Sequence record: NC_054909.1
Length of the DNA: 64,000 nt
Direction: 5' to 3' (one strand)
Source of the DNA: Escherichia phage EC121
The position numbers were made by a program, and so were the translations under genes. The notes under the pieces are model-generated. The model did not search any database, was not told where the DNA came from, and saw nothing but the letters and a program-made list of their open reading frames with translations. Position 1 is the first letter of the stretch. Each line of letters begins with the position of its first letter. This document shows positions 59,498-63,620 of the stretch, piece after piece.

Positions 59498-62400
59498 ATG
59501 GCTACTTTAAAACAAATACAATTTAAAAGAAGCAAAACTGCAGGAGCACGTCCTGCCGCTTCAGTATTAGCCGAAGGTGAATTGGCTATAAACTTAAAAG
59601 ACCGTGTACTTTTTACTAAAGATGACCAAGGAAATATTATTGATCTGGGTTTTGCTAAAGGCGGTAGTATTGACGGGAATGTTATTCATACAGGCAATTA
59701 TAACCAAACTGGCGATTATACTTTAAATGGTGTCTTCACTCAGACTGGTAATTTTAATTTAACTGGTATTGCTCGAGTAACTCGCGATATTATTGCCGCT
59801 GGGCAGATTATGACTGAAGGCGGAGAACTTATTACAAAAAGTTCAGGTACAGCGCATGTTCGTTTTTTCGATAACAATAGTCGCGAACGCGGAATCATTT
59901 ATGCCCCGGCTAATGATGGTTTAACTACACAAGTACTTAATATCAGGGTTCAAGACTACGCCGCTGGTAGCGAAAGCACTTATGCATTTTCAGGCAGTGG
60001 ACTATTTACTTCACCTGAAGTATCAGCATGGAAATCTATTTCGTCTCCACAAATTCTAACCAACAAAGTCATTACTAATAATAAATCTACGGGTGATTAT
60101 GACATCTATTCGATGGCAGACAATGTTCCATTGTCTGAAAGCACTACTGCTATTAATCATCTTCGTGTCATGCGTAATGCCGTTGGTTCTGGTATTTTCC
60201 ATGAAGTTAAAGATAATGATGGAATAACTTGGTATGCAGGTGATGGACTTGACACCTATCTTTGGTCATTTACTTGGAGCGGCGGAATTAAATCGAGTCA
60301 CTCAATTTCTATTGGTTTAACACCTGGTAATAAAGATTATTCAATATTAGGACCATCTAGTATTGCTTTAGGAGATAATGATACTGGATTTAAATGGCAT
60401 CAAGATGGATATTATTTTAGCGTTAATAATGGAACAAAAACGTTTTTATTTAGTCCTAGCGAAACAACTAGCCTAAGAAAATTTGTAGCTGGATATTCTA
60501 CTAACGGAACCGATTTAACTACTCCTCCAACTGAAAACTATGCTCTCGCTACTGTCGTGACATATCACGATAATAACGCGTTTGGAGATGGTCAGACTCT
60601 TTTAGGATATTATCAAGGCGGTAACTATCATCATTATTTCCGCGGCAAGGGTACCACAAACATTAATACTCATGGCGGTTTGTTAGTTACTCCAGGTAAT
60701 ATTGATGTTATTGGCGGTTCTGTTAATATAGATGGTAGAAATAATTCTTCTACACTAATGTTTAGAGGCAACACAACAGGATACAGCTCGGTTGATAATA
60801 TGGATATTAAAGTTTGGGGTAATACGTTTGTTGACCCAAGCGGAGGTATCCGTAAAAACATTATGGAAATTTCTGATGCAACTAGCTGGATGAGCTATAT
60901 TCAAAGACTTACTACTGGCGAAGTAGAAATGAACGTTAATGGTTCATTTGAATCATCTGGTGTTACTGCTGGAGATAGAGGAGTTCACACAACAGGTGAA
61001 ATTTCATCTGGGGCTGTGAATGCGCTTCGTATTTGGAACGCAGATTATGGAGCTATTTTTAGACGTTCAGAAGGCAGTCTTCATATTATTCCAACTGCTT
61101 ACGGTGAAGGTAAACATGGTGATATCGGTCCACTTCGCCCGTTTAGTATGGCTTTAGATACCGGTAAAGTTACTATTCCAGATTTACAATCAAGTTACAA
61201 TACGTTTGCTGCTAACGGTTATATTAAATTTGTTGGTCATGGAGCGGGTGCCGGCGGTTATGACATTCAATATGCTCAAGCGGCTCCTATTTTCCAGGAA
61301 ATTGATGATGATGCTGTAAGCAAATATTATCCTATTGTTAAACAGAAGTTTTTAAATGGTAAAGCTGTTTGGTCTTTAGGTACTGAAATTAGTTCAGGTA
61401 CATTCGTTATTCATCATCTGAAAGAAGATGGTTCACAAGGCCATACGTCTCGTTTTAATCAAGACGGTACTGTTAACTTCCCAGATAACGTTTCTGTCGG
61501 CGGCGGTGAAGCTACTATTGCTCGCAATGGTAATATCTGGTCTGATATCTGGAAAACGTTTACTTCAGCAGGCGACGTAACTAATATTCACGATGCAATA
61601 GCTACTCGTGTTGCTAAAGAAGGTGATACGATGACCGGTAGGTTGACTTTATCTGCTGGAAATGATGCCCTTGTTTTAACTGCAGGCACGGGCGCTTCAT
61701 CGCACATCCGTAGTGATGTAGGTGGTACAAATAATTGGTTTATAGGCAAAGGCGGCGGCGACAATGGTCTAAGTTTTTACAGTTACATTACACAAGGCGG
61801 TGTGAACATAACAAATAACGGCGAAATAGCGCTTTCTCCTCAAGGACAAGGAGCGTTTAATTTTAATAGAGACCGCCTTCATATAAACGGTACACAATGG
61901 ACCGCACACCAGGCTGGCGATTGGGGAAATCAATGGCGCCAGGAAGCTCCTGTATTTGTGGATTTTGGTAATGTCGGTAATGATAGTTATTATCCTATTA
62001 TTAAAGGAAAATCTGGTATTACTAATGAAGGGTATATATCTGGTGTAGATTTTGGTATGCGACGCATTCCTAATAACTGGGCACAAGGTATTATTCGTGT
62101 AGGTAATCAGGAAAACGGTTCCGACCCACAAGCTATCTTCGAATTCCACCATAATGGAAGCATGTACGTTCCTGACATGGTTAAAGCTGGAGTAAGAATA
62201 TCAGCTGGTGGAGGTGACCCTGCATGGACAGGCGCATGTGTTGTTATTGGTGATAATGACACCGGATTAGTTCATGGTGGTGACGGCCGAATCAATATGG
62301 TTGCCAATGGTATACATATTGCAAACTGGGGAGCAGGCTATCAATCTCATCCTGGGCTTTGGGATTCAACCGGTGCTTTTTGGACAGAAGTTGGAAGAGC

Positions 62401-62809
62401 TATCGTTTCTCATGGGCATCTCGTTCAGGCAAATGATAGTTATTCAACGTTTGTCCGTGATGTTTATGTCCGTTCTGATATTCGTGTTAAAAAAGACCTT
62501 GTTAAATTTGAAAATGCTTCTGAGAAGCTTTCTAAAATTAACGGTTACACTTATATGCAGAAGCGAGGCCTAGATGAAGAAGGTAATCAGAAATGGGAAC
62601 CTAACGCCGGTTTGATAGCTCAAGAAGTTCAAGCTATTTTGCCTGAATTAGTTGAAGGTGACCCTGATGGCGAAGCTTTACTTCGTTTGAACTATAACGG
62701 TGTAATTGGTTTAAATACAGCTGCAATCAATGAGCATACTGCAGAAATTGCGGAACTTAAATCAGAAATTGAAGAACTTAAAGCATTAGTTAAATCATTG
62801 TTAAAATAA
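59498..62809 (+). CDS. 37: Long tail fibre distal subunit gp37 (T2-type, with C-terminal chaperone-like domain)
   Basis: 1103-aa ORF, longer than T4 gp37; conserved N-terminus; last ~110 aa ([13 protein letters not shown]...coiled-coil) resemble an intramolecular chaperone. Confidence 0.9.
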
Positions 62810-62814
62810 TAAGA

Positions 62815-62828
62815 GGGGCTTCGGCCCC
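62815..62828 (+). terminator. UUCG-loop hairpin between genes 37 and 38
   Basis: GGGGC-TTCG-GCCCC immediately before the gene 38 Shine-Dalgarno (GGAGG). Confidence 0.5.
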
Positions 62829-62840
62829 TTGGAGGTTTAT

Positions 62841-63620
62841 ATGGCAGTAACAGGACCGTGGGTAGGATCGTCTGCAGTAGTTAATACAGGACAAAATTGG
62901 ATGGGTGGTGCCGCGCAGAGATTGAGAATGGGAATTCCGTTTTGGATGAGTAATATGATAGGTCGATCTGTTGAAATAATTCACACGCTTGGAGCAGACC
63001 ATAACTTCAATGGTCAATGGTTCCGAGATAGATGTTTTGAGGCAGGTAGTGCACCTATAGTGTTTAATATTACTGGAGATTTAGTATCATATTCTAGAGA
63101 TGTTCCTTTATTCTTCATGTACGGAGATACACCTAATGAATACGTTCAACTGAACATACACGGCGTAACGATGTATGGTCGTGGTGGGAATGGTTGGGCC
63201 GCTGGTGCAATTGGAGCATCTGATGGCGGTGTATGTATCCAGAATGATATAGGTGGACGTCTGCGAATTAATAATGGCGGAGCTATTGCCGGTGGCGGCG
63301 GTGGCGGCGGTGGTTATTCACAAGCCAACAACTGGGCGGGAAAATATGTTTGTGGTGGCGGTGGCGGTCGTCCATTCGGCTTAGGCGGAAATAATGGTGC
63401 TCGATGGCCTGGTGGTAATGCTAGTTTGACGTCTCCGGGTGCCGGCGGTAATACTGGTACAGGGTATTATGCAGGTGGCGGTGGTGAAGTTGGTCAGCCA
63501 GGACAATATGCTAATCCAGGTGCTGGTTATTCAACACCTCCGACAAGTCCTGGTGCTGCTGTAGCAGGATCAGCTCCAACATGGCAGAATGTTGGAGCAA
63601 TATATGGTTCAAGAGTATAA
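62841..63620 (+). CDS. 38: Receptor-recognising adhesin gp38 (T2/T6 type)
   Basis: Start trimmed to ATG at 62841 with GGAGG 5 nt upstream; 259 aa with poly-glycine motifs ([15 protein letters not shown]) typical of T2-type gp38; unlike the T4 chaperone-type gp38. Confidence 0.85.

Follow-up and report, generated by a model that had tools for sequence, protein, structure and literature searches.

The stretch of DNA analyzed here (the window) comprises 64,000 nucleotides of Escherichia phage EC121 (NC_054909.1), and the module in question lies close to its end, at positions 59498–63620, where g37 and g38 encode the distal subunit of the long tail fiber and an adhesin, respectively. The interval runs from the start of g37 to the stop codon of g38, and the coordinates, the 1103-residue length of gp37, and the C-terminal strings of gp37 that an earlier note on this DNA had quoted were all found in place. 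The two genes are as follows.

59498–62809, + strand: g37, 1103 residues plus stop, long tail fiber distal subunit precursor
62841–63620, + strand: g38, 259 residues plus stop, T2-type receptor-recognizing adhesin

Both products have exact full-length matches in the annotated proteins of EC121, gp37 in YP_010067930.1 ("long tail fiber protein distal subunit") and gp38 in YP_010067931.1 ("tail fiber protein; host specificity"), the latter being named "Receptor-recognizing protein gp38" in UniRef. In addition, gp37 matched phrog_1699 ("long tail fiber protein distal subunit") over its full length with 1367 bits, and gp38 also gave a full-length PHROG match.

gp37 and its C-terminal chaperone domain

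The features of gp37 that bear on its assignment are listed below.

62474–62806, + strand: peptidase S74/C-terminal intramolecular chaperone, residues 993–1103 (PF13884)
59498–59677, + strand: N-terminal end, about 60 residues, nearly identical to residues 1–60 of T4 gp37 with a handful of substitutions
60854–61147, + strand: shaft domain, residues 453–550, homologous to the C-terminal trimerization domain of gp34 (PF21446 Gp34_trimer)
61325–61342 and 61988–62005, + strand: copies of a YYPI(V/I)K repeat, gp37 residues about 585–617 and 806–838

The earlier note had likened the last 110 or so residues of gp37 to the self-cleaving intramolecular chaperone of endosialidase-type fibers. The domain was found to span 111 residues, Ser993–Lys1103, at the extreme C-terminus, and residues 993–1052 matched PF13884 Peptidase_S74 ("chaperone of endosialidase") with 48.5 bits (curated cutoff, 22; E = 1.1e-12) over model positions 1–57 of 58. 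The C-terminus of K1F endosialidase (endoNF), used as a positive control, passed the same model with 39.8 bits, and the C-termini of T2 and T6 gp37 carry the domain as well (61.3 and 43.7 bits, respectively), whereas T4 gp37, the negative control, had no PF13884 match and ends in Collar and fiber-repeat (needle) domains. Residues 911–1103 matched the crystallized S16 gp37 tip construct (6F45 chain A) with E = 4.7e-44, and the C-terminal domain is 53% identical to that of S16, 32% to that of T2, and 31% to that of T6. When the C-terminal 128 residues alone were searched against the Protein Data Bank (PDB) by phmmer, the matches outside S16 were only marginal (0.02 and 0.045), and they became significant later with a profile built from four sequences, which matched the solved S74-type domains of MYRF ICA (7dc3, 1.5e-9) and a tail fiber (8jov, 7e-9), with E = 0.025 for the GA-1 neck appendage (3gud). 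The chaperone-like nature of the tail thus held up, and self-cleavage would follow by homology.

With respect to such cleavage, the motif S993-D-I-R-V-K998 (SDIRVKK) is intact. Its SD-R-K pattern is common to the gp37 proteins of T2, T6, PP01, AR1, and S16, and it aligns with the SD-R-K of 7dc3 (MYRF), 8jov, and 3gud (GA-1 gp12). The assignment of the Ser-Lys dyad comes from the endoNF literature (Schulz 2010). Autocleavage is predicted to occur between Arg992 and Ser993 (DVYVR^S993DIRVKK) by a Ser993/Lys998 dyad. The last 25 or so residues of gp37 are helical and coiled-coil-like. According to the account given in PMC7917993, which cites Dunne 2018, the last 113 residues of S16 gp37 autocleave at DLNVS^SDRRIKK and the docking surface for gp38 is thereby exposed; the S16 motif aligns with the one here, the residue before the scissile serine being Ser in S16 and Arg in EC121. 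Proteolytic processing of T2 gp37 is likewise on record since 1986 (Drexler 1986, as cited in PMC3157838).

Some results weigh against this assignment. When the four-sequence profile was compared by hhalign with the C-terminus of K1F endosialidase, the similarity was weak (probability 2.75%, E = 0.016, 24 columns), so that the link to endosialidases is one of a shared Pfam model and not of pairwise similarity. A single-sequence AlphaFold2 model of residues 911–1103 was unusable, with a mean predicted local distance difference test (pLDDT) score of 39.3 and only the terminal helix moderately confident (pLDDT, 69–89), so that the chaperone fold stays a predicted one. Moreover, the cleavage of gp37 and the composition of the virion lie beyond direct proof from sequence. 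The failed fold prediction and the inaccessibility of cleavage to sequence-based observation could be taken to favor the view that the mature fiber keeps the C-terminal domain uncleaved, with a structural or receptor-binding role at the tip, and that the S74 match marks an inactive relic. We consider this very unlikely, as neither the Ser/Lys dyad nor any other part of the SD-R-K motif has been lost, as T2, T6, S16, AR1, and PP01 all have them too, and as both the cleavage reported at the aligned site of S16 gp37, described as needed to expose the gp38 docking surface, and the processing of T2 gp37 speak for an active domain.

The likeness to endoNF is also one of placement and motif: there too, a trimeric fiber or spike ends in the S74 domain, and a G-(L/V)-IAQ motif is common to both and aligned. 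The SD-R-K motif of gp37 is aligned with 7dc3, 8jov, and 3gud rather than directly with endoNF. The passenger also differs, being an enzymatic tailspike in endoNF and a fiber shaft that receives a separate adhesin here.

The rest of gp37 is that of a T-even distal subunit. The conserved N-terminal end is, as established in T4, the junction with gp36. The identity to T4 gp37 is 34% over residues 1–640, so that the N-terminal part and shaft are homologous, and past residue 640 no significant alignment to T4 gp37 was obtained. The PF21446 match (E = 7e-7, 30.2 bits; cutoff, 27) was extended by matches of residues 418–561 to the T4 gp34 structures 4uxe, 5nxf, and 9x3r (E about 5e-12), and this gp34-like domain is therefore a module common to the distal and proximal half-fibers; in T4 gp37, PF21446 scored more weakly, at 25.5 bits and under the cutoff. 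PP01 gp37 has 1109 residues, and its shaft DNA is 59–99% identical to g37 of EC121.

A search of g37 for long direct repeats returned only the short YYPI(V/I)K repeat (18 nucleotides, 94% identity, 663 nucleotides apart), and an internal repeat of 33 residues was found at the protein level (39% identity, E = 8e-6). In PP01, g37 recurrently loses 579–686 bp during adaptation (PMC6027323). The YYPI(V/I)K repeat lies in the region of these deletions, with coordinates that differ from the published endpoints; its role as the cause of the PP01 deletions of ∼600 bp was suggestive and was dropped on account of this mismatch.

The gp38 adhesin and its receptor loops

The domains, glycine runs, and receptor loops of gp38 are given below, the loops A–E being those defined in the PP01 structure (gp38C, residues 41–259).

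62841–62960, + strand: N-terminal attachment domain, residues 1–40 (Gp38_N), predicted to dock on the gp37 trimer tip
62961–63617, + strand: receptor-binding domain, residues 41–259, assigned as β-helix and polyglycine-II sandwich; same span as the PP01 gp38C construct
63291–63314, + strand: octa-glycine run G151–G158, followed by Y159; glycine-rich motif of the polyglycine-II core, G151–G157 invariant in 7 of 7 gp38 sequences
63354–63368, + strand: penta-glycine run G172–G176 after C171 (CGGGGGRPF motif); G172–G176, R177, and P178 invariant
63195–63212, + strand: loop A, W119–I124 (WAAGAI), identical to PP01 and 0–17% identical to T2, T6, and S16
63321–63350, + strand: loop B, Q161–V170, identical to PP01
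63390–63407, + strand: loop C, N184–W189 (NNGARW), identical to PP01
63450–63467, + strand: loop D, N204–Y209 (NTGTGY), identical to PP01
63513–63533, + strand: loop E, N225–S231 (NPGAGYS), identical to PP01, in which it is the main specificity loop

Two Pfam models account for the protein. PF05268 GP38 matched residues 45–259 with 243.1 bits (cutoff, 25; E = 3.8e-72) over model positions 1–218 of 218, and PF21721 Gp38_N matched residues 1–40 with 76.7 bits (cutoff, 25; E = 1.3e-21) over positions 1–40 of 40; the three Pfam matches of the module (S74, GP38, and Gp38_N) are all above their curated cutoffs and hence not due to chance. Furthermore, gp38 matched PDB 9V85, the receptor-binding domain of PP01 gp38 solved at 2.1 Å, with E = 8.5e-143 and, within residues 41–259, only two substitutions (I46V and S236N), and it aligned over its full length with S16 gp38 (6F45_D, E = 7e-53). 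By near-identity to 9V85, and without modeling, the fold of gp38 is assigned as a polyglycine-II sandwich. The glycine content is 24% over the full length and rises to 33% in residues 113–259. The 259-residue length and the GGGGGGGGY and CGGGGG runs described earlier correspond to the start at ATG 62841, to G151–G158 with Y159, and to C171 with G172–G176; a further glycine run is present at G212–G215.

To map the conserved and variable segments, gp38 was aligned with those of PP01, AR1, KNP5, T2, T6, and S16 (n = 7); K3 and Ox2 were left out because these six were enough for the loop map. The sequences of T2, T6, and S16 aligned over their full length. In addition to the residues noted in the list, G113–G118, G212, G214, and G215, among others, were invariant, as were Trp7, Trp20, and Trp35. 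The account of the S16 structure in PMC7917993 describes the conserved gp38 tryptophans as "prongs" into gp37. Loops A–E were 100% identical to those of PP01 and 0–38% identical to those of T2, T6, and S16. The variable segments foreseen between the glycine runs were thus borne out as receptor loops set among conserved glycine motifs.

That gp38 could instead be a T4-style assembly chaperone absent from the virion, with the receptor-binding tip borne by gp37 itself, is suggested by its place between g37 and t, which is that of T4 gene 38. A BLASTP comparison of gp38 with T4 gp38 found no similarity (best high-scoring segment pair, 11.2 bits; E = 17), both Pfam models of T2-type adhesins were matched, and the protein is near-identical to a crystallized PP01 receptor-binding domain that cross-links to OmpC; gp37, for its part, lacks the Collar and needle tip of T4 and has its own S74 chaperone in place. 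We therefore regard a T4-style chaperone as extremely improbable, and the adhesin proposed in the earlier note stands: T4 gp38 occupies the same position but is an unrelated chaperone.

Among its relatives, gp38 is 99.2% identical to that of KNP5, 98.1% to AR1, 96.1% to PP01, 65% to T6, 50% to T2, and 51% to S16. The record of Shigella phage KNP5 (KX452698.1), which holds the closest gp38, is marked UNVERIFIED, is without annotation, and at 193,624 bp is about 25 kb over a typical Tequatrovirus. The gp38 proteins of PP01 and AR1 have the same length (259 residues) and the same g37-g38-t context, and PP01 gp38 differs by eight substitutions in the N-terminal 19 residues in addition to I46V and S236N. 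Judged from these sequences, "T2-type" denotes the architectural class only, and the lineage is the AR1/PP01 subtype. The split between a T4-type and a T2-type is also used in the PP01 paper (PMC12892980). T2 and T6 have the same gene order, domain plan, and glycine-rich motifs, but their gp38 N-terminus is of the MAVVGVPGWIGSS form, whereas that of EC121 is of the S16-like "MAV.GPWVGSS" form. This S16-like N-terminus agrees with the literature, in which subtypes of the gp37 C-terminus are described as varying together with those of the gp38 N-terminus (PMC3157838). Salmonella phage S16 itself shares the plan, in that its gp37 trimer tip bears an S74 chaperone that autocleaves and its gp38 is a monomer with a polyglycine-II sandwich (6F45, Dunne 2018); it belongs to a different genus (Gelderlandvirus), its gp37 has 749 residues compared with 1103, and its receptor loops, directed to Salmonella OmpC, are 0–17% identical to those of EC121. 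The receptors also differ in T2 (OmpF/FadL) and T6 (Tsx).

The binding of PP01 gp38 to OmpC has been demonstrated by cross-linking and mutagenesis: Gly208 in loop D cross-links to OmpC loop 5, Tyr230 in loop E does so to OmpC loop 7, and the cleft that OmpC loops 5 and 7 form is engaged by loop E, which governs the specificity for O157 OmpC (PMC12892980). Residue 208 is Gly in EC121 as in PP01, and Arg in AR1 and KNP5. Because loops A–E match those of PP01 without exception, E. coli OmpC (O157-type) is very probably the receptor of the long fiber. Adaptive and host-range mutations of PP01 map at loop B (Q161H/R, Y159H, and N163H). On the other side of the balance, single-residue changes set apart the PP01 host-range mutants able to infect ompC-null cells (PMC6027323), so that the use of this receptor is labile.

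Taken together, and with a probability of roughly 0.93, g37 and g38 constitute the module by which a T4-like phage (Tequatrovirus) recognizes its host at the distal fiber end, T2 in architectural class and AR1/PP01 in subtype, in which an S74-bearing gp37 is combined with an OmpC-binding gp38 adhesin. The structure of the genes, their family membership, the conserved motifs, the near-identity to the PP01 domain, and the mosaic ancestry were computed here, and the cleavage, a 3:1 stoichiometry of gp37 to gp38, and the OmpC receptor would carry over from the homologues S16, T2, and PP01.

Mosaic ancestry and determinants of host range

Over the whole module, the best DNA match in the "phages" collection, among whose matches the EC121 genome itself did not appear, was PE37 (94.4%), and the 25 kb at the window's end are 94–96% identical to many Tequatrovirus genomes. 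Identity along g37 is not uniform, and a sliding-window comparison delimited one further feature.

62324–62440, + strand: gp37 tip cassette, residues 943–981 (39 residues), just before the predicted cleavage site

From residue 1 to about residue 942, gp37 is 97–100% identical at the DNA level to that of EPIMRB01, otherwise the closest gp37. The two proteins have 22 amino acid differences in all, 16 of which fall within the 39 residues of the tip cassette. The cassette is 100% identical to that of PE37, pSs-1 is identical over the 58 residues 935–992 that contain it, and its DNA is only about 70% identical to EPIMRB01, AR1, PP01, and KNP5. For this stretch, 24 records in the phage collection were at least 99% identical and 111 were just 60–80% identical. 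The receptor domain of gp38 is of the AR1/PP01/PE37 type, and its counterpart in EPIMRB01 is T6-like. On these comparisons, the locus reads as a recombination mosaic in which the gp37 shaft is EPIMRB01-like, the tip cassette PE37/pSs-1-like, and the receptor domain of gp38 of the AR1/PP01 type. Such mosaicism is typical for the locus and is expected rather than novel, since recombinational shuffling at conserved motifs of the gp37-gp38 locus is described (Tetart 1998; Trojet 2011). In EPIMRB01, gene 36 is annotated as two coding sequences (709–1236 and 1370–1492 of its locus sequence, L009), which points to a disrupted gene or frameshift, or else to an error in sequencing.

Discrete alleles of the tip cassette exist, and they have been swapped without regard to the shaft of gp37 or to the receptor domain of gp38. 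The cassette might constitute a second, unrecognized specificity element, a proposal that we hold to be quite unlikely. If it were true, the cassette could touch lipopolysaccharide (LPS) or O-antigen or orient gp38, and thereby modulate host range among phages with the same OmpC-binding gp38.

The earlier note had expected the variable segments of gp38 to set the host range, and we weighed this against the view that the host range comes mainly from determinants outside the loops, such as the shaft length or the tip cassette of gp37, the short tail fibers, interactions with LPS, or post-adsorption defenses. That view can draw on the PP01 gp37 deletions of about 600 bp, which by themselves improved adsorption (PMC6027323), on the exchange of the tip cassette independently of the gp38 receptor domain, and on the variety of hosts (Shigella, E. 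coli O157, LF82, and K-12) for which phages with nearly the same gp38 are on record. Nevertheless, loop swaps and point mutations of gp38 alter receptor use in Ox2, T2, and PP01 (PMC12892980; PMC3157838; Yoichi 2005, as listed in PMC6027323), and loop E governs the specificity of PP01 for O157 OmpC (PMC12892980). Adsorption is therefore determined by the gp38 loops at least in the first place, and a host range set mainly elsewhere appears unlikely. The expectation accordingly holds, from the case of PP01, for the variable segments as the primary determinant; as the sole determinant they fail, given that gp37 deletions alter the adsorption of PP01.

Expression of the fiber genes and proposed assembly

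The module closes the canonical T-even block of long tail fiber genes, g34-g35-g36-g37-g38, which the open reading frame calls in the window place on the + strand. The neighboring genes and signals are as follows.

53774–57646, + strand: g34, 1290 residues
57655–58770, + strand: g35, 371 residues
58833–59489, + strand: g36, 218 residues
63652–64000, + strand: 5′ part of gene t (holin), beginning ATGGCAGCACCTAGAATATCATTT and running past the window end
53732–53739, + strand: T4 late-promoter octamer TATAAATA, exact match just upstream of g34
58802–58809, + strand: T4-type late promoter motif TATAAATA, exact match upstream of g36
62813–62830, + strand: g37/g38 intercistronic hairpin GAGGGGC-UUCG-GCCCCUU, with a UUCG tetraloop, in the 31-nucleotide gap
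62831–62835, + strand: Shine-Dalgarno sequence GGAGG for g38, read from the sequence 5 nucleotides before ATG 62841

The order g34-g35-g36-g37-g38-t is conserved, and t likewise lies 3′ of g38 in T4, T2, PP01, and AR1. The mechanical list of open reading frames starts g38 at TTG 62829, giving 263 residues; the true start is taken to be ATG 62841, because it lies 5 nucleotides after GGAGG and yields the 259-residue NCBI protein. The g37/g38 hairpin directly adjoins this Shine-Dalgarno site. In a 51-nucleotide context, its minimum free energy was −15.1 kcal/mol (z = −1.7 compared with shuffles), which is not significant on its own, and a "terminator" is annotated at the matching site in the record of a related phage (G4507). 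The hairpin is probably an RNA-stabilizing or partial-terminator element.

In the whole window, TATAAATA occurs 18 times compared with 8.8 expected, a number that 0 of 100 shuffles reached. No exact copy was found between 58810 and 63620, and hence none before g37 or g38. Because the motif at 58802 is the nearest one upstream of g37-g38, g36, g37, and g38 are probably co-transcribed.

The GC content over the gp38 receptor domain (63000–63749) is 0.49–0.50 compared with about 0.37–0.40 elsewhere, and the GC skew there is strongly positive (0.23–0.31), both owing to the dense GGN codons for glycine. Farther upstream, residues 58–125 of gp35, the proximal hinge connector, matched PF15711 ILEI ("Interleukin-like EMT inducer") with 33.4 bits (cutoff, 27; E = 6.4e-8), a surprising family name for a phage fiber protein.

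From these features and the homologues, we propose the following course of assembly and recognition. The 1103-residue gp37 precursor would be made, probably from a late transcript starting before g36, and its residues 993–1103, the S74 chaperone, would nucleate the trimerization and folding of the fiber. The chaperone would then cut itself off at Arg992/Ser993 through the Ser993/Lys998 dyad, and its release may expose a platform of DVYVR β-strands at the trimer tip. One gp38 would dock on this platform via its 40-residue N-terminal domain with Trp7, Trp20, and Trp35, so that the β-helix and polyglycine-II sandwich formed from the conserved glycine motifs could present loops A–E to the receptor. 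On the OmpC side, loop 5 is the predicted contact of loop D, and the cleft that loop 5 forms with loop 7 would be bound by loop E.

The gp37-gp38 module is already known, in that the architecture, the self-cleaving chaperone, and both the polyglycine fold and the receptor contacts of a near-identical adhesin are published and the sequences are annotated in EC121. The concept of the gp38 adhesin and its glycine/hypervariable design are laid out in Riede 1987, Drexler 1989, and Trojet 2011, the S16 structure with its self-cleaving chaperone in that of Dunne 2018, and the interface of PP01 gp38 with OmpC in mBio 2026 (PMC12892980). The value of the present assignment is therefore that of routine annotation, indicating very probably OmpC for the long fiber, and it opens no new question. 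For the phage itself, an exchange of the loops in gp38 could serve to re-engineer the host range, as has already been done for PP01, T2, and Ox2.

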